Assembly: GCA_039679375.1 (NCBI GenBank)
Contig: JBDKVA010000076.1
Span: forward strand, 2,139 to 66,138
DNA length: 64,000 nucleotides
Direction: 5' to 3'
DNA from: Clostridiaceae bacterium
Lineage (GTDB): Bacteria; Bacillota; Clostridia; Acetivibrionales; DTU013
Part shown: piece by piece, positions 23,770 to 62,565 of the stretch
Layout of the letters: every line of letters starts with the position of its first letter
Position numbering within the stretch: the first letter of the stretch is position 1
Position numbers and translations under genes: made by a program
Notes under the pieces: model-generated
The model's input: the letters and a program-made list of their open reading frames with translations, nothing else
What the model was told of the DNA's origin: nothing
Databases searched by the model: none

Positions 23770-23787
23770 ACTCAGTCCTTTCTGCTT

Positions 23788-24837
23788 TTAAATTGGAATG
23801 ACGGAGTTGAAATTCTTTAATACAGGCTCGATCGTTTTTTCAAAAGACGACATTTCAACAATCCGCTGAAGATATTTGTCAGCCGACCATTCCTTATCAC
23901 GCTTATAGTAGAATTTATTGACAGCTCCCAGGAAAAGGTGGGGGAACATCAGGTCCAGCATGACGACCTTCCACTGAGGACGTGTGAGCGGATTATTCTT
24001 CTGATAAATCTTAAGGATCTTTTTAGTCAGCTCCATATCCCATTTGCCGGCCTTTTTCATAATCTTGTTCAGAAGCTTTCGGATATCTCTGGCTGGTATA
24101 TCTACTGTCAGGGAATCCGTATCTAGGACATATATGGTATCCGAGGGAGTCAAAATAAGGTTGCCTGCCGCAAAATCCTGATGACACAGGCATCCTTTTC
24201 CCTGACTTTCCCTGACCCAATCCGGGTATTCTGTTCCCTTTAAGCCTTCAATCGCCCTTGTGGCGCGTTCGTAAAAGTATGGGAACTCCTTGATGACGGC
24301 TGCATTCACTAAATCATGTTCACTTTTTGAAAGCTCATTTTTATAAAATGAATTCACGTCCTCCAATTGATCCGTATAATCCTCGACCCATAAACCAAGG
24401 TGATACTTTGGCTTGGTCCCTGCCTGAGGCTGAAAGCCGGAGGATGCCTTGTGGAATTTCGCCAGTTCACCTACAAGCAAAGTCAGTTCGCTTGAGGAAG
24501 AATAAGAAGGGTTCCTGCCCTCTATGGCATCTGTGAGTACATAGCAAATACCGTTAATCATGGCATAATCTTTGCCGTTACTGGTTTGTTGCACTTTCGG
24601 AAGGCGGATGCCATTATTTGTAAGGTGGCGGACCGCATCAAGTATAAAGCGGAGGGTTTCTTCCGAATTGGATATTTTTTTAAGTATTTTCATCCCCTTA
24701 TCGGTCTGAATCCACCATACTCCCTTTTTATCTTTATAGGATTCATTTTTGGTATCCAGCACTTTTATGGGGTAATTACCCAATACGGCATTCAACGGTT
24801 CATCTGCAGCGGACGACATGCCTGTCACCTCTTTCAT
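23788..24837 (-). CDS. CotS-family spore coat protein (kinase-like); likely true start at ATG complement 24817-24819
   Basis: 349-aa ORF with 'CHQDFAAGNLIL' and 'VLDTDSLTVDIPARDIRKLL'. AGAGGTG lies 5 nt before the second ATG ('MSSAADEP'); the first ATG has no RBS. Confidence 0.8.
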   Translation of the reverse strand: MKEVTGMSSAADEPLNAVLGNYPIKVLDTKNESYKDKKGVWWIQTDKGMKILKKISNSEETLRFILDAVRHLTNNGIRLPKVQQTSNGKDYAMINGICYVLTDAIEGRNPSYSSSSELTLLVGELAKFHKASSGFQPQAGTKPKYHLGLWVEDYTDQLEDVNSFYKNELSKSEHDLVNAAVIKEFPYFYERATRAIEGLKGTEYPDWVRESQGKGCLCHQDFAAGNLILTPSDTIYVLDTDSLTVDIPARDIRKLLNKIMKKAGKWDMELTKKILKIYQKNNPLTRPQWKVVMLDLMFPHLFLGAVNKFYYKRDKEWSADKYLQRIVEMSSFEKTIEPVLKNFNSVIPI

Positions 24838-26527: not shown

Positions 26528-28129
26528 ATGAGCATAGACGTTAAACCAATTAATGTAGGTGCTATGGATTGCTTTGAAAGTATTTTTGCATCCGTACTGG
26601 AATGGAAGAAAATCCATCATGAAATCCTATGGATCAATTCCATAGGATTTGATTTTATAAGGGACGATAATGCTGCAACAGACAAAATTGGCAAGAGAGT
26701 AACTGCAGGTAAAGACATTTTTGAATTCAACAGCTTTGCAAAAGAGTTTTTAAACATATATTGCACGGAGCATTTAAAAAAAGATCCTGATGAGGATTTG
26801 ATCGCAATCACGGGCGAAATATCGGAAGGCCGTCCCGTTATGCTTTTGATCGATCCATTCTGGCTCCCGTGGAAAAAGGAAGCATACGGAGTGCACCATT
26901 TATTGCCGGGACATTCATGTCTTGCTGTCGGAATGGATAATGAAATAATTCATTGCATAGATACTGTACCAAAGATATTGGATGACGCCATTTTACCAAT
27001 AAGTGATTTTAAGCAGGGCTGCAATGCATATATTACGTTTTGCTTTGACAATAGCATACCGTTGCGGTTGTTGCGTGACGATCTATTAGACATGATGATT
27101 GGCAACCTGAAATATTCTTCGTATTATACGGACTCTTTTCGTGCTATGAGGGAATTTGGCAGATGTGTGAATGAATTGCCCGATTATTCATTAGAGACGG
27201 CAGGCTATACGGAACATACCTTCTGGCTGGCTCCTATAATAAATAGCAGCGACAGGATTTTTAGATCATATGGCAAATTTTCAATGCTGGTAGAATTTCT
27301 TAATACACAATATCATATGGATATACCATCAACGGTGCCGGAGCTTATTGAACGTGGAGAACTGATATGGAATACGGTTTTGGGTCTTTTCACAAAAGCA
27401 TTTTTTTCTCCCGGGAAAGCGAAAGCAATTTTAACCAGGACGTCAGCAAAAATTATCGAAGCAGCAGACACTGCGGAAGAGATATGCAATGAATTACAGA
27501 AATTTAGAAATAATGATTATACCTCCATGTCAGCAGCGCATGAAAAAAACAGTCCCCAAAAGGGCAGGAGTATAAAAGATGTAACCTTCATCAATTTAAC
27601 GGACCATTTTAATAATAAAGGCTTCGGCAGAGGAATTTCACCGGATAACAGAGCGGACCTGAACGGGTTCGGATATTACCTTCTATCAGACGGCATCCCT
27701 GATGATATATGGGCGGTACAGGAAATAAAATATCAGCTTCCTGATTTATTTACTGATGATAATGACAATATATCCTGCGACAATCAAGTCGTTGATATCC
27801 GGCCGGGACGCTACAATGGCATTTCTATACTTGGATGCGCAGAGGCAAGAAATCAAGGGGGCTTTTTGAATATATTTTATTCAGACGGGAGCAGTGATGA
27901 AATAATTGTAAAATTCACAGATTGGTGCGCCAAACCGCTTTTTGGAGAAACGGTAGCATGGACTGGTTTACGGGTATGCAAATACGAAGGGAAAGCAACA
28001 GTCTGCGAAGAAAAAGCTAATTTATTGATTCAGCAGTATGAGATCAATCACAACAAAACAGTTGTAAAAATAGTATTGCCGGACTGCTGGAATCTTCATA
28101 TTTTTGCAATATCGCTGTTCAGATATTGA
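26528..28129 (+). CDS. Free-standing BtrH-like (papain-fold Cys/His) protein with an additional ~190-aa beta-rich C-terminal domain
   Basis: 533 aa. The N-terminal 'GAMDCFESIFASVL' (Cys15), 'EGRPVMLLIDPFWLPW' and 'GHSCLAVGMD' align in order and spacing with the C-terminal domain of the last megasynthase (59690-60720). The C-terminal domain is not recognised. Confidence 0.55.
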   Translation: MSIDVKPINVGAMDCFESIFASVLEWKKIHHEILWINSIGFDFIRDDNAATDKIGKRVTAGKDIFEFNSFAKEFLNIYCTEHLKKDPDEDLIAITGEISEGRPVMLLIDPFWLPWKKEAYGVHHLLPGHSCLAVGMDNEIIHCIDTVPKILDDAILPISDFKQGCNAYITFCFDNSIPLRLLRDDLLDMMIGNLKYSSYYTDSFRAMREFGRCVNELPDYSLETAGYTEHTFWLAPIINSSDRIFRSYGKFSMLVEFLNTQYHMDIPSTVPELIERGELIWNTVLGLFTKAFFSPGKAKAILTRTSAKIIEAADTAEEICNELQKFRNNDYTSMSAAHEKNSPQKGRSIKDVTFINLTDHFNNKGFGRGISPDNRADLNGFGYYLLSDGIPDDIWAVQEIKYQLPDLFTDDNDNISCDNQVVDIRPGRYNGISILGCAEARNQGGFLNIFYSDGSSDEIIVKFTDWCAKPLFGETVAWTGLRVCKYEGKATVCEEKANLLIQQYEINHNKTVVKIVLPDCWNLHIFAISLFRY

Positions 28130-28315: not shown

Positions 28316-29056
28316 ATGAGGGGATCCGAACATTTGTCAAGTATAATAAAGTTATTCTGTTTCCCCTATGCAGGCGGTTCAGCATCCGTATACGGTAAAC
28401 TGAAACAGTATTTGGATAAAAATATTGAAATCGTACCTATTGAGTATACCGGAAGAGGAAAAAGGATAAATGAGAAGTTCTATACCGATATTTCCGGTGC
28501 AATCGACGATATTTATGAAGTGATCCGCAAACATATTAATGGTCATGAGTTTGCATTTTTAGGTCACAGCATGGGATGCGTCATTGCTTATGAAATTTGC
28601 AAAAGAGTAAGGGAGGATTGCGGAAGGGAACCGGCGCACATTTTTGTATCGGGAAGATATCCGCCGCACGTCAGGAAGAAGAGTACCATTTTACATACTC
28701 TCCCAAACGACAGGTTTAAAAATGAAATTATGAAAATAGGAGGTACTCCGAAAGAAATATTTGAAAATGAAGAATTGTCACAAATTTTTATTCCCATACT
28801 GAAGGCTGATTATAGGTTGGTAGAGCTTTATGAATTTCAGGATGAGAATGTAAGATTCAACTCCGGGATCACCGTATTAAGCGGTAAGGATGACAAAATA
28901 GTTGAAAAGGATGAATTATATGAATGGCAAAAGTATTCATTCTATGCAATAGATTTATATGAATTTGACGGCGGACATTTTTTTATCAACAACTATGTTA
29001 AGGAAATAGCGGAGATCATTAATCATTCACTAGACGTTCGTTCTATACCGGTATAA
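28316..29056 (+). CDS. Type II (editing) thioesterase
   Basis: 246 aa with 'FCFPYAGGSASVY', nucleophile elbow 'GHSMG', and 'GKDD' / 'GGHFF' at the C-terminus. Confidence 0.9.
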   Translation: MRGSEHLSSIIKLFCFPYAGGSASVYGKLKQYLDKNIEIVPIEYTGRGKRINEKFYTDISGAIDDIYEVIRKHINGHEFAFLGHSMGCVIAYEICKRVREDCGREPAHIFVSGRYPPHVRKKSTILHTLPNDRFKNEIMKIGGTPKEIFENEELSQIFIPILKADYRLVELYEFQDENVRFNSGITVLSGKDDKIVEKDELYEWQKYSFYAIDLYEFDGGHFFINNYVKEIAEIINHSLDVRSIPV

Positions 29057-29082: not shown

Positions 29083-31059
29083 ATGAACATGCTCGATAGT
29101 GGAATGTCGACGACCGTTTTTTTAGTTTCGGGTGCATTTATACTTGTAACAATATTTCATCTCTTCATACTTCTTAAAGAGATCGTGACGAAGCAGCGCA
29201 GTTTTCGAACGAAAGGGATAAAAGATGCTGGTACTGTTCTATTTTCTTTCGCACTTATCGGCGCGATTTTTTATTGCCTCTACAAGGCTCCGTTTGCGTT
29301 GTTTTACGGAACAACATGGGAAATGATTGATGAATTCGGACCTTCACTACTTATTAAAGTAGCTGTTTGCATGGTTTTTGTCATCCCATTATTTTATCTG
29401 TATTTTATTCTTTCACACTTCTTTGTTAAGAAAAATGGCAAGCCCTATTTTTTGATTATTATACTCAGCATATTGAGTGCGTTAGGGAACTCGATGATTA
29501 TTGTAATAATAAATCAGGCGCTAAACAGGGTAATGGGAGATGAAAGCCGCAGGGCCGGGATAGAAAGCGGATTATACCTATACTTCCTGCTGGGTATTGC
29601 GCTTTTTACAGTAAGCGCAATGATCGTCAGAAAAAAGTTAATTGTCATTACAAGCCAGATGGTTTACGAAAAGCGGGTAGAGATTATCGACAGGTTAATG
29701 AACGCTCCCTATGAAAAATTTGAAGCGATGGAAGACGGCAAGATACATGCCGCCCTTAATAATGACACCGAAGCAGTCAGCGGGTTTGTTAATGCATTAG
29801 TCAATGGATTGACCGGAGTTATTACATTAATTACATGCTTCATCTATTTGGGAACAATCAACCTGTTAGGAATGCTTTTCTCAATTTTAATGATATGCGT
29901 TGCCGTAGGACTATTCCTTTCTGTCAGTGACAAAGCGGAAAAGAAGTTTGAAGAGAACAGAGATATACAAAATCATTTTTTCAGGTTTATTAATGATATG
30001 GTAAAAGGCTTTAAAGAGCTGTACATAAATAAAAAGAAGTGCCGTGAATTCACGGATGATATTCAAAAAAGCTGCCTGGATTACCGGGATTCACGCGTCG
30101 AAGGGGAGTTCAGCTTTGTCGGAGTCTCAATATTGGGGGAAATACTTTATATCCTGGTAGTCGGTATTGTCGTGTTTATTTTCCCGTTGATATTTCCGAA
30201 TCTGGAGAACACCAGACTAAACAACTATGTTCTTGTATATTTATACATGGGCGGGATCGTAAATCAGGAAATTTACCTGGTGCCGGGAATCATGCGGGTG
30301 CTGGTCAGCTGGAGAAGGATAAATCAATTTATAAATGAGCTTTCATCCCAGAATCCTGCAAACCGCCATACTTCTGCTCCTTTAAACAACAAGGCTGCTT
30401 TGGATATAAGCTTGAAAGACGTCAGGTTCCAATACAAAAATGAAACCGGAGAAAACTTCTCTGTAGGTCCTCTCAATTGCAACTTCAAATCAGGAGAAAT
30501 TGTTTTCATATCCGGTGGAAACGGGAGCGGCAAATCAACTCTGGTCAAGCTGCTGACAGGTCTTTACAGACCTGATGAAGGCAATATTACCATAAATGGA
30601 CTTCCTGTTGATACAGAAACTCTCGGGAGCTGCTTCTCAACTGTTTTCAGTGATTTTTTTCTTTTTGACAAAATGTATGGCATCGACTATGAAAGGAAAA
30701 CTGCGGAAATCAGTCACTACCTGGATGTGCTGCGTATCCGGGATAAAGTCCGGATATGCGACGGAGTATTCAGCACAGTTAAGCTTTCTACCGGACAGAG
30801 GAAAAGGCTGGCTCTTTTGATCAGTTATCTGGAGGACCGCCCTGCTTATGTTTTTGATGAATGGGCGGCAGATCAGGATCCGGAATACAGGAACTTCTTT
30901 TACAGGGCATTGCTGCCCGAACTGAAGGCAAGAGGCAAGGCGGTTGTTGCCATAACGCATGACGACCGCTATTTCAGTGAAGCGGATATACATATAAAGA
31001 TGGAAACAGGTCAGATCATCAGCTGTGTAAGGAATCACGCACAAGCTGTGACTGCATGA
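29083..31059 (+). CDS. Cyclic-peptide-type ABC exporter (SyrD/YojI-like fused TMD-NBD) with an N-terminal extension
   Basis: 658 aa. Walker A 'GGNGSGKST', signature 'LSTGQRKRL', Walker B 'YVFDEWAADQD'. About 110 extra N-terminal residues carry about 3 additional hydrophobic helices. Confidence 0.85.
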   Translation: MNMLDSGMSTTVFLVSGAFILVTIFHLFILLKEIVTKQRSFRTKGIKDAGTVLFSFALIGAIFYCLYKAPFALFYGTTWEMIDEFGPSLLIKVAVCMVFVIPLFYLYFILSHFFVKKNGKPYFLIIILSILSALGNSMIIVIINQALNRVMGDESRRAGIESGLYLYFLLGIALFTVSAMIVRKKLIVITSQMVYEKRVEIIDRLMNAPYEKFEAMEDGKIHAALNNDTEAVSGFVNALVNGLTGVITLITCFIYLGTINLLGMLFSILMICVAVGLFLSVSDKAEKKFEENRDIQNHFFRFINDMVKGFKELYINKKKCREFTDDIQKSCLDYRDSRVEGEFSFVGVSILGEILYILVVGIVVFIFPLIFPNLENTRLNNYVLVYLYMGGIVNQEIYLVPGIMRVLVSWRRINQFINELSSQNPANRHTSAPLNNKAALDISLKDVRFQYKNETGENFSVGPLNCNFKSGEIVFISGGNGSGKSTLVKLLTGLYRPDEGNITINGLPVDTETLGSCFSTVFSDFFLFDKMYGIDYERKTAEISHYLDVLRIRDKVRICDGVFSTVKLSTGQRKRLALLISYLEDRPAYVFDEWAADQDPEYRNFFYRALLPELKARGKAVVAITHDDRYFSEADIHIKMETGQIISCVRNHAQAVTA

Positions 31060-32414
31060 ATAAAAAGACGGGAAAGCAGCTTAGATCAATAAAAAGTGGG
31101 GTTCATGGAATGATAAAGAGGTTTTTTACAGTTTGCCTGCTATCCATATTTCTGCTCCAATCAGGATGCAGCAGTGTGATATCCGTTCCTTCCGCACCGG
31201 TCGGCAGCTACAGCGTCGATGGGGTAAGCATTACGGATAAAGGTAATTACTTTAGTGTTGTACTTGATTTTACCACCGGTCTGACACACAGGCAGGTCGG
31301 AGAAGCTTATGCAAAGGGAATACTGCAGTTGGTGCCCGACTATGAAGCACTTGTTGATTCATACATTGCTGAAAATATTATTCATTCCGATTACAAACCC
31401 GCTTTTAACCGTATAGAGGACATTAAACCCGGTATAAATGATGATTTTATAGAAGAGATCGATGCAATGGCGTCAGTTTTGTCCGGTGGCGGGAATGATT
31501 TGAGAAGAGATGGAAAAGTGTCGCGAAATGAATTTTATCTCTTTAACCTGTTCACAGATGTAGTTCGTGGTACCCAATGCAGTTATATCTCGGTTTTCGG
31601 AACGCGTTCCGCAACGAAAAAAACGATCACGGGAAGGAACCTGGATTGGTACGGAGGCAGCAGGAACCAGCTTCCAAGGCTCCAGGCAGTAATTACCCAC
31701 CTTTATCCTGACAAAAAGGTATGTTCTATCGGTTACATGGGTTTTATGGGAGTTATTACAGGTTTTAATGACAGCAGGATTTTCGCGGGTATCCTTGATT
31801 CAGGTACAAATGCGGCATATACATCCGAAGGAAGGCGCTCCTATGTTTTTGATCTGAGATATGCGCTGGAGAATATGAGAACGATGGATGATGCGGCGGA
31901 ATTTATGAGAGATCCCTCAAAGCTTTATACATATAACCATATCATCGGGTTTTCCGATCCGGACAGGAGCATTATTCTGGAAAATAATTTCAGCGGGAGC
32001 GGATCGGACGGGAACAGAGTAAAACGCGCAATAAGAGAGAGCGATTCCGGGCTGAACAAAAATATAACCTGGGGGATCAGTAATGCCGCAGCTGCAGTAA
32101 ATTCCTTTGTGCTTTACGGTAATCATGATAATCATACACCCAATAAATATAATACGAAAAGGTGGTCAAATATTAAAACACAATTGCAGAATGAAGGCTC
32201 AGAGGTATCCTCCGAGAAAATGAAGAGGATCATTTCCTATAACCGCGGCAAACCGGGCAACTTTTCCGAGAGCGGCGATATTTATAATAAAATGACTTTG
32301 CAAATGATCGTATTTCAGCCGGATACCCTGTCGCTTGAGATTTATTTTCGTCCGAAGGGTAACAGGATCAACCCGGTTCAACCTGTTTTTGAAAAGATTG
32401 AGGTTTTTGAGTAA
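31056..32414 (+). CDS. Secreted or lipid-anchored Ntn-hydrolase-like protein (peptidase C45 / acyl-CoA:6-APA acyltransferase-like)
   Basis: 452 aa; 4-nt overlap with the exporter gene. Signal/lipobox-like 'FTVCLLSIFLLQSGCSS'. 'GTQCSYISVFG...ITGRNLDWYGG' resembles the self-processing Gly/x-Cys nucleophile and the 'GxNxDW' motif of C45/C59 Ntn hydrolases. An alternative start is ATG 31110. Confidence 0.5.
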   Translation: MNKKTGKQLRSIKSGVHGMIKRFFTVCLLSIFLLQSGCSSVISVPSAPVGSYSVDGVSITDKGNYFSVVLDFTTGLTHRQVGEAYAKGILQLVPDYEALVDSYIAENIIHSDYKPAFNRIEDIKPGINDDFIEEIDAMASVLSGGGNDLRRDGKVSRNEFYLFNLFTDVVRGTQCSYISVFGTRSATKKTITGRNLDWYGGSRNQLPRLQAVITHLYPDKKVCSIGYMGFMGVITGFNDSRIFAGILDSGTNAAYTSEGRRSYVFDLRYALENMRTMDDAAEFMRDPSKLYTYNHIIGFSDPDRSIILENNFSGSGSDGNRVKRAIRESDSGLNKNITWGISNAAAAVNSFVLYGNHDNHTPNKYNTKRWSNIKTQLQNEGSEVSSEKMKRIISYNRGKPGNFSESGDIYNKMTLQMIVFQPDTLSLEIYFRPKGNRINPVQPVFEKIEVFE

Positions 32415-52699: not shown

Positions 52700-53965
52700 T
52701 TGTTTATGAAAAGGGTAGTTCTGATTTTTCCAGGCCAGGGCTCACAATATGTGGGAATGGCAAAAAGCCTTTGCGGGTCATTCAGGGAAGCAAAGGAAGC
52801 ATTTCAAGAGGCGGGCGATACGCTGGGCTTTGATATCGAAAAGCTTTGCAATGAAGGCAGTATGGAGGAACTGACACGGACGGAAAACACCCAGCCTGCT
52901 GTTTTAACGGCAAGCGTGGCAGCTTACAGAGTATATATGAAGGAAATAGGCATTGAGCCGGTGTATGCTGCAGGGCACAGTTTAGGTGAAATTTCAGCTC
53001 TATGCTGCGCAGGAGGCATACGATTTGCCGATGCGGTCAGCATAGTAAGGCAACGCGGGATATTTATGCAGGAGGCCGTTCCCGCCGGGGTTGGAGGTAT
53101 GGCGGCCATAAGCGGCGCAGGTCAGGATGCCATTGAGGCGGAATGCAGAAAAGCATCTGTTAATGGGAAGCTGGCAGCGATCTCAAACTATAATTCTCCG
53201 GAGCAGATTGTTATTTCAGGGAATATCGAAGCGGTAAACGAAGCCGCTGACAGGCTGAAAGCAGCAGGCGCCAGAGTAATCCCGCTGAAGGTGAGCGCGC
53301 CGTTCCATACGCCGCTTATGAGGCCGGCGGCGGACAAACTTGGGAAAGTACTGGAGCAATACAGCTATGGAGAGCTGCGGTATAAAGTAATATCAAATGT
53401 AACGGCACAGCCATATCCGGGTAGGGAAAGCATCATTGAATACCTGACCGGGCAAATGATCCGGCCTGTCAGATGGCAATCTTCCATGGAGTTTGTCTGG
53501 AAGCATGGAGTGGATTTGGCTGTTGAACTTGGACCGCAGACTGTTCTGAAAAATCTGATGAAGAAAAATGTTCCGGAACTGATGACTTGTTCTATTGGCC
53601 AGGAGCCTGACATACAAGCTTTAAAAAGTCAACTGGCTTTAAGCGGGCAGGAAGCAGGCAACGGCATTGATTTTATTACACGGTGCATCGCGATTGCGGT
53701 GTGCACTAAAAACAGCAATTGGGACGAACAGGAATATCAGAGGGGCGTTGTAGAGCCATACAGGGAAGTAAAAAGCATGAAGGAAAAAATCATGAAAGAG
53801 GGCAGGAATCCTTCTCCGGAGGAAATCAAAAAATCGCTCGACATGCTGAAGAGCGTGTTTATTACTAAGAAATCACCTGTAGAGGAGCAGGCGGAAAGAT
53901 TTAATGAATTATTCGAAAAGACAGGCACAAGGCATCTGTTTCCGGACTTTAAAATGCCTTTATAA
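52700..53965 (+). CDS. Discrete (trans-acting) malonyl-CoA:ACP acyltransferase with a ~110-aa C-terminal extension; likely start ATG 52706
   Basis: 'FPGQGSQYVGM', 'GHSLGE', 'SAPFHT'. GGGAGG lies 7 nt before ATG 52706; the track start at 52700 is a TTG. Confidence 0.9.
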   Translation: MFMKRVVLIFPGQGSQYVGMAKSLCGSFREAKEAFQEAGDTLGFDIEKLCNEGSMEELTRTENTQPAVLTASVAAYRVYMKEIGIEPVYAAGHSLGEISALCCAGGIRFADAVSIVRQRGIFMQEAVPAGVGGMAAISGAGQDAIEAECRKASVNGKLAAISNYNSPEQIVISGNIEAVNEAADRLKAAGARVIPLKVSAPFHTPLMRPAADKLGKVLEQYSYGELRYKVISNVTAQPYPGRESIIEYLTGQMIRPVRWQSSMEFVWKHGVDLAVELGPQTVLKNLMKKNVPELMTCSIGQEPDIQALKSQLALSGQEAGNGIDFITRCIAIAVCTKNSNWDEQEYQRGVVEPYREVKSMKEKIMKEGRNPSPEEIKKSLDMLKSVFITKKSPVEEQAERFNELFEKTGTRHLFPDFKMPL

Positions 53966-53982: not shown

Positions 53983-56900
53983 TTGCAGCCGCAGTATTCA
54001 GGGGGAAGCCATATGTTTGGAAATCAAGAGGTTAAACCTGTGGAACAGTCTATTGATGAATTTGTAGCCGGGCTGGAAGATAAAAAAATTAAATTATGGG
54101 CAGAAGGTGATTCACTTCGGTATAAAGCACCGGCAGGAGTAATAACAAAAGAGGTGTTAAAAAGCCTGAGTGACAAAAAGGCTGCAATATTGGACTACTT
54201 AAAGTATAAAGACGCCGGCGGGATCTTTTCTATTCCGATCAGCAAGGCGGGAGAAAAGGAATGCTACCCTTTGTCTGCCGCCCAGATGAGGATGTTTTTG
54301 CTCAATCGGCTTGATGACAGCAGTACCGCTTACAACCTGACGCAGGTCCTTAAAATAAAGGGAGAGATTGATAAGGAACGTCTTCATGCAGTTTTAAGAC
54401 AGCTTGCAGCCAGACATGAAGCCCTCAGGACCTCTTTTGAAATGGCGGATGGGAGGCCTGTACAGAGGATACATGATGATGTGGATTTTGAAGTGGATTA
54501 TCAGGAGGCTGATGCTGCAGATGAGAATATTGCAGGAATAATAAAGGACTTTATAAAACCGTATGACCTGTCAAAAGCGCCTTTGTTCAGGTTTAAGCTG
54601 GTAAAGCTTATTGGTACCGACGGTAAGCCGTCATACATCCTGATCCAGGATATGCATCATATTATATCCGATGGTGTTTCAGAAGGTTTATTGGTCCGGG
54701 AGGTAAATGGATTATTTTCAGGAAAACGCTTGCCTGATCAGAGGATACAATACAAGGATTATGCAGAGTGGCACGAAAAGCTCTTAAAAAGCAGCGGGAT
54801 TCAACGTCAGAAGCAGTACTGGCTTGAAAGGCTGAAGCCCGAAATCCCTCTGCTCAATTTGCCGACTGATCACGCCAGGCCGCCTATATTCAGCTTTGAG
54901 GGGAGCTCTTTAAAATTCCGTATTGGAAGAGGCATGGTTTGCAAGCTGCATAACCTTGCGCGTGAAAACAGGGTGACGCTATTTACTCTGCTGCTTGCGG
55001 CATATGCCATTTTGCTTGAGCGTTATACCGGCCAGGATGATATCATGATCGGGACGCCTGTTGCGGGAAGAAGACATGCCGATATTCTCAATACCATCGG
55101 CGTTTTTATCAATACGCTGGCACTGAGGATTTCATACGCACCTGAAAGCAGTTTTGCAGAATTCCTGAAAAGTCTTGGACAGGATGTTTTGCAGGCCTTC
55201 GACAATCAGGATTATCCTTTTGCAAATCTTGTTGATGATATTGTTGTAAAGCGGGATATGAGCAGGAATCCGGTTTTTGATACCATGTTTATACTGCAGA
55301 ATATGGATGTTGACGAAATCAAGGTCGAAGGTCTGGAGATATCCGGCTATGAATTTGATAAGGGTATGGCGCAGTTCGATATTACACTTATAGCAACTGA
55401 GATAAAAGATGAAATAGAAATCGAATTGAATTATTGCACGAGCCTGTTCTCAGAGGACACCATCCGCAGATTCGGCGCGCACTATATCAACATATTGGCT
55501 TATATGTCGGAGCACCCCGAAGTAAGGCTCCGGGAAATTGATATGTTATCGGATGCGGAGAAGCATCAGCTTTTATATGAGTTTAACAACACGACTGTTC
55601 CTTATCCTAAAGAAAAATTGGTCCACAGTCTTTTCGAAGAACAGGTCAGGAGGACGCCCGGAAATGTGGCGCTTGTATTAAGAGACAGACAGGTTACTTA
55701 TAAGAAATTGAACGATATGGCAAATTGCATAGCAAACAAATTACGTGAAAAAGGTGCTGACAGAAATAGCATTGTAGGGATACTGGCAAACCGTTCGTTT
55801 GAAATGCTGGCAGGCATAATTGGCATACTGAAGTCAGGCGGCGCATATTTGCCGATCGATCCCGGATATCCTGAGGACAGGATCAATTATATGATAGAAG
55901 ACAGCGAGACCCGTGTATTGCTGACGATGAGCCATTTAAAGTGCAAGATCGGATTTGACGGAGAAACCGTTTTTCTTGATGAGCTGGATTACGCCGATTC
56001 TCCGGCAGTTGACCCGGAAATCATAAACAGACCGGAAGATCTTGCGTATATGATCTATACGTCGGGTTCTACAGGAAAGCCTAAAGCAGTTATGATAAGC
56101 CACCGGGCGCTGAATAATTTTATCAGGGGCATGACGGATAAAATTGAGTTCAGGCAGGAGAAGTCCATCCTGGCACTAACAACGGTTTGCTTTGATATAT
56201 TTGCACTGGAGACACACCTGCCGTTAACATGCGGAATGAAAGTCGTTATTGCGGATGAGAATCAGCAGATGGATTCAAAACTTCTTTATGATCTTATTAC
56301 CGAGCATAATATTGATATGCTTCAGATGACGCCTTCCAGGATGAAGCTGCTTTTAAGCAATAAAAACAGTGCAAATTGTTTAAACAAGGTAACCGATATC
56401 ATCGTCGGGGGAGAGATGCTGTCCGACAACCTGCTCAAGGAGATAAGCAGCATAACGAAGGCCAGGATATTCAATGCCTACGGGCCTACGGAAACGACTG
56501 TGTGGTCCGCATTAAAAGAATTGTCGGGATCAGAACAGGTCAATATAGGAAGACCGATAGCAAATACGCAGATATATATATTGGGCAGCACAAACAGGCT
56601 GCAGCCGGTCAATGTAACCGGCGAGCTGTGCATAGGAGGAGATGGCCTTGCCAGGGGGTATTGGAAAAGAGAAGATCTGACAAAAGAAAAATTTATCACC
56701 AACCCCCATACGAACAGCCGAATTTATAAGACCGGCGACCTGGCGTGCTGGACGGCGGATGGAGAGCTGAAGCTAGCGGGCAGGATGGATCATCAGGTAA
56801 AAATAAGAGGCTACAGGGTGGAGCTTGAGGAAATCGAAAAACAGCTGATGGGTTATACCGGCATGGAGGATTGTGTCGTAACTGCCCGTGAGGACAGCTT

Positions 56901-59900
56901 GGGGAATAAATATATCGCGGCGTATTATGTTTCTGCCGGGGAGCAAAATGTAGGGCAGATGCGTGCATTCCTTTCCGGAACGCTGCCCGAATATATGGTG
57001 CCGGGGACGTATACCAGGCTTGAACAGTTTCCGAGAACAGCAAACGGTAAAATAGACAGAAAGTCATTGCCGGAGCCTGTGTTGGTGCGCCAGTCTCTAG
57101 GTAACGAATTTATTGAGGCAAAAACAAGAAGTGAAAAAGTGTTGGAGGATATCTGGAAATCACTTTTGGGCACAGATCAGATCGGCATCCATGATAATTT
57201 TTTTGATGCAGGCGGCAATTCGCTTTTACTGGTACAAATGCATGCAAAAATCGAAGAAAAGTTTCCGGGGAAAATATCCGTTGCCAGAATCTTTGCTTAC
57301 CCGACCATTTCAAAATTAGCCGGCTTTCTGGATGAAGATTGTACCTTATCCATGGATGAGCGGAAAGCAGCTTCAACTGCTTTACAGGATGCGATGGAAT
57401 CAGGTGCTTGCGGGAAAGCACCCGTGAAGGATATTGCAATCATAGGCATGCACGGAGTATTTGCCGGAGCCGAAGACTTTGATGAATATTGGGAAGCTTT
57501 GAGGACCGGAAAGGATTGCACCAGAGAAATACCTGCAAATAGAAGGACGGATCTGGAAAATATTCTAGCATCGGCCGGAGCTGCGGATCAAAAAAGGAAT
57601 CCGGAATACATGCGGTGTGGGTATATGAAGGAAATCGACAAATTTGATTACAGCTTTTTTAATATATCTCCGCGGGAAGCAAGCTTTATGGATCCCAATC
57701 AGCGGCTTTTTCTGCAAACAGCGTGGAAAGCGGCGGAGGACTCCGGATATGGGGGAGGACTGCTAAGAGGGAGTAAAACAGGCGTATATGTCGGATATAG
57801 CAGTGATTTCGGAAAAGAATACAAGGATATCATCCGGCTGACCGGAGAGGATCCTGCAGCTCAGCTGGTACCCGGAAATATCAAATCAATTATCGCAGGC
57901 AGGATCGCATATCTGATGGATCTGAAAGGCCCGTGCATTACGGTCGATACAGCCTGCTCATCCGCCCTTGCCGCCGTTCATCTGGCCTGCAGCGGAATCA
58001 GAAACGGAGAATGCACAATGGCGCTGGCCGGGAGTGTAAAAATAAGCCTTACGCCGTTTGACACGGACAGGGAAAGCAGAACAGGCGCAGGGCTTTCGAA
58101 CGGAAAGGCAAGGGTATTTGATGAAGCTTCGGACGGCACAGGCTTTGGAGAAGGTGTTGCGGCGGTTTTACTCAAGCCGCTTGACGAAGCTGTTCACGAT
58201 CGCGATCATATATATGCGGTCATAAAAGGTAGCGCAATGAATCAGGACGGCGCCTCCGTCGGGTTAACGGCGCCGAACTCCGCCGCCCAGGAAGAGCTTA
58301 TATTGCAGGCATGGGATAATGCAGGGGTGGATCCCCTTACCATTTCCTATATTGAGGCAAACGGAACGGGAACTAAATTAGGGGATTCTATCGAAATCGA
58401 AGCTATTACCGGAGCATTCAGAAAATATACAAACAGAAAACAATTTTGTGCGATCGGTTCAGTGAAAGGCAATATGGGGCATCTGGATCATACGGCAGGT
58501 ATGGCCAGGCTTATTAAAGCGGTGCTGTCATTGAAAAACAGCATGATACCGCCCACTCTGCATTTTGAAAATCCAAATACGATGATTGATTTTACAGGTT
58601 CACCGGTATATGTAAACGACAAACCGGAAAAATGGGAGACGGCGGGATTCCCGAAGAGGTGCGGAGTCAGCGCTTTCGGCTTAAGCGGGACGAACTGCCA
58701 TATTATACTGGAAGAGCCGCCATTGGGAATGCCTGCGCGGGAAGATAAAGCAAGCCCGGAAGTCAATATTCTGTCGATGTCTGCAAAAAGTAAAGCGACG
58801 CTTAAGGAAATCGTCCGGCAGTATAAAGCATTTCTCGGGAAGAATGAAAAGATTGATTTAAGGGATGTTTGCCATACGGCTAACACCGGAAGGGGACATT
58901 ACAATTTCAGGTTGGCTGTTATGTTTAAAAGAAGGGACGACCTTACGGACAAAATTGAAACGCTTATCAGCTCCGATCTGGATATTCGCAATCATAACAG
59001 CATACATACCGGAGAATTTAAGATAATATCAGGACAGCATTGCATGGGTAAAATGGGAGAACTGACACAGGAGGATGTAAAAAAGCTAAATCAGGAAGTG
59101 AATATTATTTTAAAAAGGATGGAAGAAGAGCCGGACAATGAAGTTTTACATGGAGCTTTGTGCGGTTTGTATGTAAAGGGAGCGGATATTGACTGGAATA
59201 AGCTCTATACCGGTAAAGGATCAAAACGGGTAAGTCTGCCGACCTACCCGTTTGAAAGAAAAAGATGCTGGATTGAGCCTGTAATAGATGAAAGCGGATA
59301 CCGGCCAAACGAATTGAACTGCTCTGCAAATCGCTCCCGCATAATGAATGTAAGGCTTGAGGGGAGAGATGACGGACGCTACACGGTAACGGAAATGAAA
59401 ATAAGCTCAATATGGGGAGAATTATTGGGGCTTGATGTAATCAATATACGGGATGACTTTTTCATGCTAGGCGGCAACTCACTCATAGCGCTTAGGTTTG
59501 AAGCGGAAATGGAAAAGAAACAGCTTAAGGTTGATCATTCTATGGTTTATACTTATCCGACAATTATAGGATTGGCGGAATACCTGGATAAAAATGATAA
59601 ACATCCTGATACAGATAGCGGACAAATGATTAACAGCACTGCTGCAATGATTGCGGGAGCAAATATGGATTGCCGCGAGAAAGGGATTGAACTTGAAAAT
59701 ATCGAGCCATTCAACGATATTATCTATAAAGGATGCTTTTACAGCGCTTACCTTCCGGTAGTAAACCTGTATGGAATACCGGTGCTTGCTGTTTTAGTAA
59801 ATGAAGTCAGTACGTATAAATTACTGGATGATGGAAAAACCAAAATACTTAATATTGATTATCTGCCAGGCAAGCCTTTCTATGCCTTGTCCGAAAGTAT

Positions 59901-60723
59901 GGGCATCAAGGCATACGTCAGGCATAAGTCCGGCGATATCATCAATGATACATTAACAGCGCTTCGAGGTAACAGGCCGGTTATAGTATGTGTCGATCTG
60001 TATCATGTATCAATTAGACCGGATATGTATAACAAGACGCATGAACCGCATTGTTTATTGATTTATGGTTTTGAAGAAACCGGGCAAGTATTCCGTATTC
60101 TTGAACACCGCCATTCAGGAAGCCTGGTGTATGAAAAGCGTACGTTAAGATATGCGGATCTGGAAAAGTCATATGCAGGATACCTTGATCATTTCAATAA
60201 ATTGGATATAATAAAAAGCAACCTTTATAATCTGGAATATATAAATGATAAGGAAGCCCCGTCATTCTTTGAGTTTGACAGGATCGGACAGAATAATACC
60301 GTTACCGACATGGATGTTTTAGGGGTTTTCTCTGTGAACCTTAAGTGTCAGGAGAAAAAAGTCCAGGAAGGATTGGAATGCTTGAAAGCCTTTTCACCGG
60401 AGTTTGCAAAAGTAATTTTGGATGAGCAAAAGGCCGTTAAAAATGCAGAAAATATCATCGTCTTTCTTAGCGAGGTGATACTTTCAAAACAGGCCGAGTA
60501 CTATAGAAATTCAAAGCTGTTGGAGCACCGGCCTGAATTGCATGAAGCACTTAATCAAAGTCTTGTATATTGGAATTTCATCAGGGCGAATATTGGTAAA
60601 ATGCACTATACATCGAAGTATAGAAGGGGAAATATGGAGGATTGTGCTGAAAAGTTGAATTCGATATATCAGCTTGAAAAAAGTTACTATGAAAATCTGT
60701 ATTCTATATTGAATAGTAAATGA
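53983..60723 (+). CDS. Hybrid NRPS/PKS terminal protein: docking - C - A(Gly-like) - T - KS0 - [linker] - ACP - BtrH-like papain-fold domain; likely start ATG 54013
   Basis: Docking 'IDEFVAGLEDKKIKLWAEGDSLRYKAPAGVITKEVLKSLSDKKAAILDYLK'. C 'HHIISDG'. A 'YTSGSTGKPKA'. T 'GGNSL' (Ser 57220-22). KS 'TACSSA' (Cys 57955-57) but 'EANGTGT' (Asn 58360-62 where His is expected). 'YPFERKRCW'. ACP 'GGNSL' (Ser 59479-81). The C-terminal ~340 aa carry Cys (59734-36) and His motifs. No TE, R or terminal C domain. Confidence 0.9.
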   Translation: MQPQYSGGSHMFGNQEVKPVEQSIDEFVAGLEDKKIKLWAEGDSLRYKAPAGVITKEVLKSLSDKKAAILDYLKYKDAGGIFSIPISKAGEKECYPLSAAQMRMFLLNRLDDSSTAYNLTQVLKIKGEIDKERLHAVLRQLAARHEALRTSFEMADGRPVQRIHDDVDFEVDYQEADAADENIAGIIKDFIKPYDLSKAPLFRFKLVKLIGTDGKPSYILIQDMHHIISDGVSEGLLVREVNGLFSGKRLPDQRIQYKDYAEWHEKLLKSSGIQRQKQYWLERLKPEIPLLNLPTDHARPPIFSFEGSSLKFRIGRGMVCKLHNLARENRVTLFTLLLAAYAILLERYTGQDDIMIGTPVAGRRHADILNTIGVFINTLALRISYAPESSFAEFLKSLGQDVLQAFDNQDYPFANLVDDIVVKRDMSRNPVFDTMFILQNMDVDEIKVEGLEISGYEFDKGMAQFDITLIATEIKDEIEIELNYCTSLFSEDTIRRFGAHYINILAYMSEHPEVRLREIDMLSDAEKHQLLYEFNNTTVPYPKEKLVHSLFEEQVRRTPGNVALVLRDRQVTYKKLNDMANCIANKLREKGADRNSIVGILANRSFEMLAGIIGILKSGGAYLPIDPGYPEDRINYMIEDSETRVLLTMSHLKCKIGFDGETVFLDELDYADSPAVDPEIINRPEDLAYMIYTSGSTGKPKAVMISHRALNNFIRGMTDKIEFRQEKSILALTTVCFDIFALETHLPLTCGMKVVIADENQQMDSKLLYDLITEHNIDMLQMTPSRMKLLLSNKNSANCLNKVTDIIVGGEMLSDNLLKEISSITKARIFNAYGPTETTVWSALKELSGSEQVNIGRPIANTQIYILGSTNRLQPVNVTGELCIGGDGLARGYWKREDLTKEKFITNPHTNSRIYKTGDLACWTADGELKLAGRMDHQVKIRGYRVELEEIEKQLMGYTGMEDCVVTAREDSLGNKYIAAYYVSAGEQNVGQMRAFLSGTLPEYMVPGTYTRLEQFPRTANGKIDRKSLPEPVLVRQSLGNEFIEAKTRSEKVLEDIWKSLLGTDQIGIHDNFFDAGGNSLLLVQMHAKIEEKFPGKISVARIFAYPTISKLAGFLDEDCTLSMDERKAASTALQDAMESGACGKAPVKDIAIIGMHGVFAGAEDFDEYWEALRTGKDCTREIPANRRTDLENILASAGAADQKRNPEYMRCGYMKEIDKFDYSFFNISPREASFMDPNQRLFLQTAWKAAEDSGYGGGLLRGSKTGVYVGYSSDFGKEYKDIIRLTGEDPAAQLVPGNIKSIIAGRIAYLMDLKGPCITVDTACSSALAAVHLACSGIRNGECTMALAGSVKISLTPFDTDRESRTGAGLSNGKARVFDEASDGTGFGEGVAAVLLKPLDEAVHDRDHIYAVIKGSAMNQDGASVGLTAPNSAAQEELILQAWDNAGVDPLTISYIEANGTGTKLGDSIEIEAITGAFRKYTNRKQFCAIGSVKGNMGHLDHTAGMARLIKAVLSLKNSMIPPTLHFENPNTMIDFTGSPVYVNDKPEKWETAGFPKRCGVSAFGLSGTNCHIILEEPPLGMPAREDKASPEVNILSMSAKSKATLKEIVRQYKAFLGKNEKIDLRDVCHTANTGRGHYNFRLAVMFKRRDDLTDKIETLISSDLDIRNHNSIHTGEFKIISGQHCMGKMGELTQEDVKKLNQEVNIILKRMEEEPDNEVLHGALCGLYVKGADIDWNKLYTGKGSKRVSLPTYPFERKRCWIEPVIDESGYRPNELNCSANRSRIMNVRLEGRDDGRYTVTEMKISSIWGELLGLDVINIRDDFFMLGGNSLIALRFEAEMEKKQLKVDHSMVYTYPTIIGLAEYLDKNDKHPDTDSGQMINSTAAMIAGANMDCREKGIELENIEPFNDIIYKGCFYSAYLPVVNLYGIPVLAVLVNEVSTYKLLDDGKTKILNIDYLPGKPFYALSESMGIKAYVRHKSGDIINDTLTALRGNRPVIVCVDLYHVSIRPDMYNKTHEPHCLLIYGFEETGQVFRILEHRHSGSLVYEKRTLRYADLEKSYAGYLDHFNKLDIIKSNLYNLEYINDKEAPSFFEFDRIGQNNTVTDMDVLGVFSVNLKCQEKKVQEGLECLKAFSPEFAKVILDEQKAVKNAENIIVFLSEVILSKQAEYYRNSKLLEHRPELHEALNQSLVYWNFIRANIGKMHYTSKYRRGNMEDCAEKLNSIYQLEKSYYENLYSILNSK

Positions 60724-60741: not shown

Positions 60742-60999
60742 GTGTTGAGCAGCGTATATGAAAAAATAGTGGAAATAGTAAAAAGGCATCTGTATGAAAT
60801 AGCGCCGGAAATGGAAGTGACACTTGAAAGCAGGTTAATAGACTTAGGAATTAATTCAATAGGGTTTATAAAAATAATCGTTGAAGTTGAAAATGAATAT
60901 GATTTTGAATTCAATGACCTGGATTTGGATTTTAAAAAGTATGTTACGATCAAAGATTTTTGTGATTATATATTAAAAAAATACATTCAATTAATATAG
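60742..60999 (+). CDS. Stand-alone acyl/peptidyl carrier protein
   Basis: 85 aa with a GTG start after AGGGGA. 'LIDLGINSIGFIKIIVEVENEY' has the D-x-G-x-x-S phosphopantetheine-attachment motif (Ser 60856-58). It starts 18 nt after the terminal megasynthase gene. Confidence 0.7.
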   Translation: MLSSVYEKIVEIVKRHLYEIAPEMEVTLESRLIDLGINSIGFIKIIVEVENEYDFEFNDLDLDFKKYVTIKDFCDYILKKYIQLI

Positions 61000-61079
61000 G
61001 TCAAAATAAAAAATAAACTGTAGCAAATATATCGATCCTAGGATATAATGTAAGTGGTGTTTATAAATAATGTTGAATG

Positions 61080-61330
61080 ATGGCTGCAGGAGAGTTCCGC
61101 AAGTAGCGGGAGCCGAAGAAGTAAGCTGTACGGGATAGTCAGCCCGGCGGTGAAACTTTCAGGAAAAAGGGCTGCAGTCGGACAATACTCTGAAAAGCTG
61201 ATCAACAGCACCGAAGGAGCAAGATTGCCGGAGTGATTTGCAGGAAAGCGAATACTTCGGCCATGGAATCTCTCAGGTTCATAAACAGAGGAAGATGACA
61301 AGTGTTATTTGTCGTTTTCCTCTGTTTTTT
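61080..61330 (+). promoter_or_regulatory. Tandem glycine riboswitch with terminator-type expression platform
   Basis: Aptamer 1 is 'GGCTGCAGGAGAG...GGGAGCCGAAGAAGTAAGC...CTGCAG'. Aptamer 2 is 'CTCTGAAAAG...CACCGAAGGAGCAAG...CTCTCAGG'. The terminator AACAGAGGAA...TTCCTCTGTT plus a T6 run lies at ~61284-61332. gcvT follows. Confidence 0.85.
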
Positions 61331-61455: not shown

Positions 61456-62565
61456 ATGATGGATATGGATAATCATGGTCAGGTCAAAAAAACCCCTCTT
61501 TATGAAGCACATGTAGCTGCGGGAGGAAAGCTTATTGATTTTCATGGCTGGATGCTGCCTGTACAGTACAGCGGCGGTATACTGCAGGAGCATGAAAGCG
61601 TGCGGACAAAAGCAGGGCTGTTTGATGTATCACACATGGGAGAAATTGAGGTCAGCGGTCCTGATTCTTTTAGTTTTCTCCAATCACTGCTGGTAAACGA
61701 TATCGTCGCCAAGCCAGGGAAGGCAGTATATTCGCCCATGTGCTACCCGGATGGGGGAACGGTGGACGACCTTATTGTCTATAAGCTATCGGACGAGAAT
61801 TATTTGCTGGTGGTAAATGCTTCGAATTCGGATAAGGATTTCCAGTGGATCAAGGATAATAAAAAAGGAAAGGTATCCGTTATCAATCATTCCGATGAGT
61901 ACTCCCAGCTGGCTCTTCAGGGTCCCAAGGCAAAGGATATACTCCAGCGGCTTGTTTCGATGGACCTTGATAACCTGCGCACCTTCCAGTTTGTTAACAA
62001 TGCTGCGGCAGGGGGAATCAGTATGATCCTTTCAAGGACCGGCTATACAGGGGAAGACGGGTTTGAACTGTATTGCCGTCCCGACGAGGTAAATAAACTT
62101 TGGGATTTGCTGCTGGAAAAGGGCAGACCATACGGCCTGGTCCCGGTAGGACTTGGAGCAAGAGATACGCTGCGGCTTGAAGCAGATTTGCCTCTATACG
62201 GGCAGGAACTGTCGGAAACCATCTCACCTGTTATGGCTGGACTAAAACGTTTCATTAAGCCTGACAAAGGCGATTTTATCGGGAAAGGGCCGATCGTTGA
62301 TCAATTAAATGGAAATATAAAGCAAAAGCTGGCGGGATTTGAAATGACAGACCGGGCTTTACCAAGAACGGGCTACGAAGTCTATTGCGGTACGGAGAAG
62401 GCAGGCTATGTCACAAGCGGAGGCTTTTTCCCGACATTAAAGAAAAATATGGGGCTGGCGTTGCTGGATGTGGACTGTGCGAATGAGGGCAATATGATCA
62501 AAGTGAAAGTGAGAGAAGGTCTGTATGCTGCAAAAATAGTCAAGCTTCCTTTTTATAAAAGGTAG
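61456..62565 (+). CDS. gcvT: Glycine cleavage system aminomethyltransferase (T protein)
   Basis: 369 aa with 'TPLYEAHVAAGGKLIDFHGWMLPVQY' and 'GLFDVSHMGEIEVSG'. AAGGAAGG RBS. Confidence 0.95.
   Translation: MMDMDNHGQVKKTPLYEAHVAAGGKLIDFHGWMLPVQYSGGILQEHESVRTKAGLFDVSHMGEIEVSGPDSFSFLQSLLVNDIVAKPGKAVYSPMCYPDGGTVDDLIVYKLSDENYLLVVNASNSDKDFQWIKDNKKGKVSVINHSDEYSQLALQGPKAKDILQRLVSMDLDNLRTFQFVNNAAAGGISMILSRTGYTGEDGFELYCRPDEVNKLWDLLLEKGRPYGLVPVGLGARDTLRLEADLPLYGQELSETISPVMAGLKRFIKPDKGDFIGKGPIVDQLNGNIKQKLAGFEMTDRALPRTGYEVYCGTEKAGYVTSGGFFPTLKKNMGLALLDVDCANEGNMIKVKVREGLYAAKIVKLPFYKR

Follow-up and report, generated by a model that had tools for sequence, protein, structure and literature searches.

How does a finished chain leave a hybrid polyketide synthase–nonribosomal peptide synthetase (PKS–NRPS) assembly line that ends in none of the usual release domains? 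The shape that a polyketide or non-ribosomal peptide finally takes is decided at chain release, which is also a main handle for engineering such compounds, and the known release catalysts are thioesterases (TE), reductases (R), terminal condensation (C) domains and a few oddities. The question is raised by an antibiotic-type gene cluster within a 64,000-nucleotide stretch of DNA from a Clostridiaceae bacterium (contig JBDKVA010000076.1; the whole stretch is hereafter the window), in which the last synthase continues past its terminal carrier domain into a region that we call X. We find that X is, as judged from its residue pattern and a structure model, a predicted BtrH/CtaG/CcbD-type Cys-His-Glu transacylase at the TE position, and that a small carrier protein encoded immediately downstream is its presumed second carrier partner. 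Terminal X domains recur in uncharacterised clusters of spore-forming bacteria and probably represent an undescribed hand-off route for the finished molecule.

X stands at the thioesterase position of the last synthase

The cluster spans approximately 26.5-61.0 kb of the window and contains five synthase genes with the domain orders A-T-C-A-T-KS-KR-DH-T, KS-T, C-A-T, KS-KR-T and C-A-T-KS0-T-X (A, adenylation; T, carrier; KS, ketosynthase; KR, ketoreductase; DH, dehydratase; KS0, non-elongating KS). The last of these is a single uninterrupted open reading frame (ORF), for which the gene caller on an identical public contig (L024, 12 kb, 100% identical over ORF6, found via a look-up of the small carrier) sets an alternative start at ATG 54013. 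The Pfam matches within this ORF run from a TubC-type docking domain through C, A and T to a KS with remnants of the linker between KS and acyltransferase (AT), a second carrier domain and X. The KS carries a C-N-H triad, Asn1460 replacing the first His in the motif EANGTGT, whereas the three remaining KS domains in this cluster are C-H-H. It is therefore a non-elongating KS0, as an earlier first-pass annotation, made from the letters of this DNA alone, had already called it.

The terminal acyl carrier protein (ACP), with its phosphopantetheine Ser1833 in a GGNS motif (59479-59481), is the presumed acyl donor for X. The 371 residues that follow this carrier domain contain none of the motifs GxSxG, HHxxxDG, TGxxGxxG and GxGxxG, and the region gives no Pfam match to thioesterase, reductase or condensation families. 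Instead, it carries YKGCFYSAYLPVV at 59725-59763, which contains Cys1918 (59734-59736), GNRPVIVCVDLYHV at 59968-60009 and HEPHCLLIYGF at 60040-60072. According to Pfam, none of the synthases of the cluster has a TE, an R or a terminal C domain at its end. The first-pass annotation had described X as taking the place of a TE behind the last carrier, had noted the missing TE, short-chain dehydrogenase/reductase and condensation motifs, and had located the carrier Ser, the Cys and the quoted peptides; all of these are where it placed them, and the motif scan and Pfam agree with its reading of the region. The specificity code of the last A domain, read by eye, resembles, with low confidence, the glycine code; if this is correct, the chain that reaches X ends in Gly.

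X has the predicted fold and the conserved residues of papain-like transacylases

Two weak Pfam matches connect X to known families: BtrH_N (PF14399) at 27.4-27.8 bits (E 4.5e-6; gathering cut-off 29.7) and Peptidase_C39_2 (PF13529) at 25.0-25.3 bits (E 3e-5; above the cut-off of 24). The latter shows kinship at the level of the clan, that is, of the predicted papain fold, and X has neither the ABC-transporter fusion nor the leader-peptide context of a C39 peptidase. A word-index homologue search with the single X domain returned no relatives, and no NCBIfam family matches X at E<=1. An exhaustive HMMER scan, which covered 1.84 billion representatives, returned 808 clusters (50% identity) at E<=1e-3, 602 at <=1e-10 and 230 at <=1e-30. 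Most database relatives of X carry a precomputed PF14399 annotation; among 68 aligned free-standing relatives, 67 match BtrH_N at E<=0.01 (best 1.9e-12) and 59 match Peptidase_C39_2. The BtrH_N-type papain-fold assignment made at first pass is supported by these Pfam matches, although X itself lies under the BtrH_N cut-off. Two further likenesses that it had proposed fell away: a DUF4872 tail is matched by 0 of the 68 relatives and is likewise missing from Pfam matches of the X in the window, and no transglutaminase family, as would be expected of an AdmF-type domain, is found among the Pfam matches of the X region at E<=1.

Residue conservation was read from an alignment of the query with its best 150 relatives (151 sequences). 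Cys1918 (59734-36) is present in 149, the remaining two having gaps; His2023 (60049-51) and Asp2005 (59995-97) are invariant, and His2020 (60040-42) is found in 150. Position 2041 (60103-05), Glu in the window, is Glu in 146 sequences and Asp in 5, and His2042 (60106-08) is kept in 145. Conservation above 90% extends to Arg2012 (60016-18), Lys2169, Trp2197, Arg2201 and Glu2232, and all the conserved residues are retained in X of the window. The Cys/His pair that the first-pass annotation had singled out as a possible catalytic arrangement (Cys1918 with His2020/His2023) is therefore invariant or nearly so.

An AlphaFold2 (AF2) model of X built from a 25-sequence alignment reaches a pLDDT of 90.9 and a pTM of 0.87; the alignment was needed, single-sequence AlphaFold giving a pLDDT of 33. 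The model divides into a papain-like alpha/beta half and an all-helical half. Cys1918 lies at the N-end of a helix, and His2023 and Glu2041 lie on successive strands; judged by these secondary-structure positions, the modelled Cys/His/Glu layout fits a papain-like site. A Foldseek search of the PDB reveals one group of significant full-length matches only, consisting of AziU3, CtaG and CcbD (probability 1.00, TM 0.55-0.64, alignments of 345-378 columns). The best match is AziU3 (8gs1/7wuw; E 2e-8), and the group includes CtaG (9qvl; E 5e-7, TMt 0.64) and CcbD (7yn1/7yn2/9dks; E 7e-7 and weaker). Modelling and Foldseek comparison had been proposed at first pass as a check on the assignment, and the full-length matches speak for it. 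A sequence/profile search of the PDB with X gave a weak AziU3 match alone (E 0.2) together with coiled-coil noise, and the kinship of X to CtaG and CcbD is visible by predicted fold only. From the full-length fold matches and the active-site pattern we therefore place X in the BtrH/CtaG/CcbD superfamily, despite the missed Pfam cut-off.

Carrier–X fusions are widespread and not recent

In 80 of the best 150 relatives, X forms the very C-terminal end of a larger protein; 67 others are free-standing (approximately 330-350 aa), and in 3 X is followed by a short tail or a carrier-domain tail. Domain mapping finds that a T domain directly precedes X in almost every one of the 83 larger relatives. 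These T-X fusions stand behind PKS modules (46) as well as NRPS modules (36), the commonest contexts being C-A-T-X (19), KS-KR-T-X (17), KS-T-X (11), DH-KR-T-X (8) and A-T-X (7). The survey for ACP–BtrH fusions suggested at first pass thus yields at least 80 C-terminal cases within this set. Free copies of X are usually encoded directly after the last module, as in Alkaliphilus transvaalensis (L003), Paenibacillus sp. FSL R7-0273 (L005), Clostridium algidicarnis (L008) and C. botulinum (L025). All named sources of X relatives are Bacillota, and the database labels of the relatives are limited to “hypothetical protein”, “BtrH N-terminal domain-containing protein” and “amino acid adenylation domain-containing protein”. 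Genome scans for X loci gave 4 loci with a single-protein query and 12 with a 9-sequence query.

Nearest-neighbour analysis reveals that free and fused forms of X are intermixed, and we therefore find repeated fusion and fission in this family. The closest relative (P0001, 42% identity) is likewise fused, in the order C-A-T-KS-KR-T-X. The KS that precedes T-X is mostly C-H-H, and hence fully active, across the relatives; we considered KS0 as a general trait of KS-T-X termini and rejected it on this ground. KS0 is, by its triad, a trait of this cluster and not of the X family.

The base composition of X differs from that of the KS0 and A domains of the same ORF. X has 38.1% G+C, with a G+C content of 0.40 at third codon positions (GC3) and of 0.28 at second positions (GC2), versus 49.0% G+C and a GC3 of 0.475 for KS0; the GC3 of the A domain is 0.52. 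A low GC3 is also seen in the terminal ACP (0.38), the downstream carrier gene (0.29), the gene of the discrete thioesterase (0.36) and the gene of a second paralogue described below (0.38). The low G+C of X is partly caused by its amino-acid composition, as reflected in GC2. The contrast noted at first pass from spot counts is therefore real. Its interpretation as a sign of recent fusion is rejected, since T-X is present in 80 of the best 150 relatives, P0001 is also fused, and free and fused forms are intermixed. The composition fits a mosaic cluster and gives no evidence of recent fusion.

A small carrier protein accompanies X

The X gene of the window is followed, 18 nt past its stop codon, by a gene for an 85-aa AcpP-like free carrier protein with weak NCBIfam matches to ACP and AsbD. 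We surveyed 19 distinct X loci with fetched flanks for such partners. A small carrier (82-104 aa) lies <=60 nt downstream of X in 6 of them (the window, L003, L005, L015, L017 and the L018 group) and elsewhere in the flank in 4 (the L011 group, L016 and L026, up to approximately 3 kb downstream, and L009, at approximately 9 kb), so that 10 of the 19 loci have one. Small carriers accompany X-type domains in modular and in non-modular clusters. The window carrier scores 61 bits against a hidden Markov model (HMM) of the small carriers of the other loci, whereas no in-line T domain of the window exceeds 22 bits, and it reaches 5.7 bits against an in-line T HMM. By these profile scores, the small carriers of X loci form a distinct subfamily.

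The pairing is also found within one polypeptide. A relative of X (P0022) ends in the order A-T-X-CP, where CP is a carrier domain that scores 54 bits against the small-carrier HMM and 2.5 bits against the in-line T HMM. We argue from this fusion and from the synteny that X works with two carriers, in a CtaG-like manner, the 85-aa protein presumably being the second. No dedicated adenylation enzyme or ligase for this protein is encoded in the window.

A second member of the family, X2, is encoded at the other end of the cluster as a 533-aa free-standing BtrH_N protein. Over its first 340 aa it aligns with the X family as a distant, full-length paralogue (hhalign 96.5%, 291 columns, including the Cys and the His), and a match to AziU2, which pairs with AziU3, covers residues 412-483 (E 9e-8); X2 is, by this combination, a single-chain AziU3+AziU2-like protein. 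In the metagenome contigs L022 and L023 the same cluster begins with a 98%-identical X2, and additional BtrH-like paralogues are present in the X loci L001, L002, L007 and L012. A homologue of X2 (E 4e-21) furthermore forms the N-terminal domain of an Alkaliphilus NRPS with the order X2-T-C-A-T. The T domain behind X2 in that protein has no A domain of its own, which suggests, from domain order, that X2-type domains may load a carrier thiol. As an observation in its own right, this architecture hints at a further use of papain-like domains, at the start of assembly lines or as bridges between them.

Table 1. Positions of the features discussed; positions refer to the window unless a locus is named
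Feature	Position	Strand	Evidence or remark
Last synthase ORF	53983 (TTG)..60723	+	single uninterrupted ORF
Last adenylation domain	55633-57051	+	specificity code read by eye, ~D-I-L-Q-I-G-A-V-W-K
KS0 of last module	57427..58569	+	Pfam ketoacyl-synt / Ketoacyl-synt_C; Cys1325, Asn1460, His1500
Terminal carrier domain (ACP)	59395..59607	+	Pfam PP-binding, two stretches in ORF; GGNS motif
X, whole domain	59674-60720	+	after terminal ACP; two weak Pfam matches only
X, N-terminal papain-like alpha/beta half	59674..60288	+	BtrH_N/Peptidase_C39_2, conservation, AF2, Foldseek
X, C-terminal all-helical half	60289..60720	+	AF2 helices 215-348 of model; Lys2169, Trp2197, Arg2201, Glu2232
85-aa AcpP-like free carrier protein	60742-60999	+	Pfam PP-binding; Ser39 at 60856-58
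X2, 533-aa free-standing BtrH_N protein	26528-28129	+	Pfam BtrH_N 30.5 bits; Cys15, His129
Discrete type II-like thioesterase (TEII)	28316..29056	+	Pfam Thioesterase E 5e-45; only alpha/beta-hydrolase thioesterase of cluster
ABC exporter	29083-31059		between TEII and C45-family lipoprotein
C45-family lipoprotein	31056-32414	+	LLQSGC lipobox; NCBIfam C45 autoproteolytic acyltransferase/hydrolase 193 bits; before first synthase gene
Trans-acting malonyl-CoA:ACP transacylase for AT-less PKS modules	52700..53965	+	Pfam Acyl_transf_1; NCBIfam fabD 307 bits, above cut-off
Glycine riboswitch aptamer	61077-61184	+	Rfam 54 bits
Terminator-like hairpin	61283-61327	+	between glycine riboswitch and gcvT
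gcvT	61456-62565	+	downstream of riboswitch
Two tandem CotS/YutH-like spore-coat kinase genes	22759-24837	-	with glycosyltransferase operon, upstream of cluster
Small carrier, L003	10998-11252
Small carrier, L015	6983-7273
Small carrier, L018	7006-7254
Small carrier, L026	12043-12297
Alkaliphilus transvaalensis NRPS X2-T-C-A-T	L003 16678-20970		same cluster as free X and small carrier

Possible routes of chain transfer by X

We tentatively favour, at somewhat less than even odds, a reading in which X takes the chain from the terminal ACP and hands it to the small carrier, with final release left to TEII or X2. In such a sequence, (I) KS0 would move the finished chain onto Ser1833 of the last ACP, (II) the chain would pass to Cys1918 as a thioester, with His2023 (together with His2020) and Glu2041 completing the triad, (III) the acyl-enzyme would be resolved by a nucleophile on the 85-aa carrier, either the phosphopantetheine thiol (a shuttle) or a tethered amine (a CtaG-like two-carrier ligation), and (IV) the small carrier would be relieved of its load by the discrete thioesterase or by X2. 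The fold, the family, the conserved triad, the terminal position and the conserved pairing of X with a small carrier are the observations from which we infer acyl transfer, its direction, its acceptor and the final release step. The small carrier is favoured as the acceptor because of the T-X-CP order, seen in separate genes and in the P0022 fusion, and because no loading enzyme for the small carrier accompanies it. Several points weigh against this reading. A small carrier is missing from about half of the X loci (e.g., L001, L008, L014 and L025), so that X is evidently able to work without one. For BtrH/BtrI, AsbE/AsbD and L026-type loci, the simplest reading makes the small carrier the donor and not the acceptor (PMC12865890); L026 itself, with a small carrier, an ornithine/diaminopimelate-type decarboxylase and X, looks like a donor system of the butirosin/petrobactin type. 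A KS0 step followed by another carrier-to-carrier step looks redundant. Finally, X of the window scores 27.4 bits for BtrH_N, slightly under the gathering threshold of 29.7, and has second-shell changes, the DCFYESIR of the family being DLYHVSIR here and a Phe being replaced by Leu1924.

Direct release is a possible if somewhat unlikely alternative, in which acyl-Cys1918 would be attacked by a free amine, be it a polyamine, an amino sugar or an amino acid, to give a C-terminal amide, the small carrier being used otherwise. Gly-polyamine termini are known in Bacillales peptides and, with the glycine-like reading of the A domain, point in this direction, as do the strictly terminal position of X and the fact that roughly half of its loci have no small carrier nearby. 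BtrH, AsbE and CcbD moreover use free amine acceptors (PMC12865890, PMC12945683). However, no gene for polyamine or amine supply is evident in the cluster, the established amine release in NRPSs proceeds through terminal C domains (PMC10587159), and the repeated tight linkage of X and small carrier, including the T-X-CP fusion, would be left unexplained. That conserved partner would remain equally unexplained if X were a cysteine-type thioesterase or cyclase, with the acyl-Cys being resolved by water, to a free acid, or by an internal amine or hydroxyl, to a macrocycle. Hydrolysis is the native activity of papain-fold enzymes, the Peptidase_C39_2 match is above its cut-off, and X occupies the TE position in lines without a TE in cis; yet CtaG and CcbD, the nearest structural relatives of known function, are transferases and AziU3 is not a hydrolase either (PMC12865890), and the discrete thioesterases that lie beside X in several loci (within approximately 2 kb in L008, L015, L025 and L027) would be redundant, all of which makes this reading improbable.

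The direction of transfer could also be reversed, the small carrier donating, for example, a malonyl or acetyl group loaded by the trans-acting AT, and X capping the distal amine of the ACP-bound chain before another enzyme releases it. This would agree with the role of the small carrier as donor in BtrI/BtrH, AsbD/AsbE and L026-type loci and with the distal elongation by CtaG between two carriers (PMC12865890), as well as with the AcpP-like character of the small carrier and the presence of a FabD-type transacylase. The order, however, is always T-X-(CP), colinearity favouring T as the donor, and a tailoring domain would not be expected solely at the C-terminus of the last module, where X is found in 80 of the 83 fused cases; we therefore consider the reversal more improbable still. 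We give very little credence to the view that X performs no acyl transfer and is a structural or docking remnant, or that it catalyses AziU3-like non-acyl chemistry. Its best Foldseek match is indeed AziU3, an aziridine-forming protein described as functionally unrelated to CtaG (PMC12865890), and X of the window has several residues that differ from the consensus of the family. Against this, the Cys/His/Glu set is invariant in fused and free members and intact here, and X is always coupled to a carrier domain.

An extension of the favoured transfer to the small carrier is that X, the small carrier and X2 together form a hitherto undescribed hand-over system between carrier thiols, in which a finished or half-finished chain would travel from the ACP of the line via X to the small ACP and via X2 to a final acceptor or the next line. 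We regard this extension as doubtful. If true, such a hand-over would open the chain, ahead of its release, to tailoring or cyclisation by trans-acting enzymes, and it would amount to a general thioesterase-free termination or relay logic for Bacillota PKS/NRPS lines.

Surroundings of the cluster

The glycine riboswitch and gcvT, separated by a terminator-like hairpin, mark the 3' boundary of the cluster, whose PKS modules lack AT domains and are provided with a trans-acting transacylase encoded directly upstream of the last synthase (Table 1). At the 5' end, X2 is followed by the discrete thioesterase, an ABC exporter and the C45-family lipoprotein, which may be an extracellular maturation or prodrug-cleaving enzyme. 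The CotS/YutH-like kinase genes further upstream indicate an endospore-forming Bacillota host. We note that genes of the beta-lactamase/penicillin-binding protein (PBP) family lie near the X/small-carrier pair and ABC exporters in two other loci (L003 14893-16071 and L017 1111-2280), and that their products may be PBP-type off-loading cyclases that act after X. With respect to the identity of the product, the cluster presumably encodes neither edeine, the module order of which does not seem to fit, nor paenilamicin, for which the cluster seems too small.

Novelty and meaning

We found no description of a BtrH/CtaG-like C-terminal domain of a modular PKS or NRPS, or of its carrier partner, in the full-text literature, a search from which most subscription journals are excluded. 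This agrees with the first-pass judgement that fused X-type domains are not an established release logic. The fold and the reaction type are already known from free-standing enzymes, as is one carrier–transacylase fusion (MllDE, PMC12865890); new are the architecture and the partner carrier, not the reaction type. If X works as proposed, it would be an additional tool of assembly lines for release or hand-over, would account for the termination of many “TE-less” clostridial and paenibacilli clusters and would provide a new termination rule for genome-mining tools. The family to which this would apply is large, with 808 clusters overall and at least 80 distinct fused forms in the best 150 relatives.

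Comparison with known systems

CtaG from the closthioamide pathway of Ruminiclostridium cellulolyticum moves an acyl group from one carrier via Cys11 to an amine on a second carrier, using a C11/H128/D144 triad in a Cys-His-acid ping-pong mechanism (PMC7183216, PMC12865890), and elongates distally between the two carriers (PMC12865890). Like X, it combines a papain-like N-domain with a helical C-domain, acts on a carrier-bound donor and belongs to a system with a second carrier. The triad spacing is also similar, C1918/H2023/E2041 of X corresponding to domain positions 21/126/144. CtaG differs from X in its sequence (approximately 14% identity), in being free-standing within a non-modular pathway and in having Asp as its acid, whereas X is fused to a trans-AT PKS–NRPS terminus and has Glu. 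The lincosamide enzymes CcbD/LmbD transfer a prolyl unit from a carrier protein to an amino sugar by a Cys-His-Glu ping-pong mechanism (PMC12945683). CcbD shares with X this triad, the two-part architecture and a full-length structural match; however, it is 12% identical, free-standing and without a fused carrier or a small-carrier partner.

BtrH (butirosin), AsbE (petrobactin) and MllDE are placed in the same structural class as CtaG (PMC12865890). BtrH and AsbE take their acyl group from a small free carrier (BtrI, AsbD) and yield an amide (PMC12865890). X is linked to them by a BtrH_N match slightly below the cut-off, and the small carrier of the window has a weak AsbD match; unlike BtrH, X lacks a DUF4872 tail and is fused to a megasynthase. 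MllDE of the methylolanthanin pathway consists of a carrier protein fused to a transacylase (PMC12865890) and, compared by description only, shows the same order of carrier and papain-like transacylase in one polypeptide as X, although it is small, comprises two domains, serves a siderophore pathway and is not the C-terminus of a multi-module synthase. AziU3, which acts in azinomycin aziridine formation, is reported to be functionally unrelated to CtaG and to acyl transfer (PMC12865890). It is the best structural match of X, and the paralogue X2 has an AziU2-like domain; in contrast to the AziU3/AziU2 complex, X has no AziU2-like partner domain, has a complete Cys/His/Glu set and is tied to carrier domains.

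Similar tasks are also performed by unrelated folds. The enacyloxin system relays its chain through a KS0, a shuttle carrier and a C domain, a task similar to that proposed for X. Amine-terminated NRPS products are released by terminal C domains such as glidonin C13 (PMC10587159), which share with X the proposed release onto an amine. By analogy with its characterised relatives, the idea put forward at first pass, that X transfers its chain onto an amine or another carrier protein, may thus claim CtaG and CcbD as its precedents.

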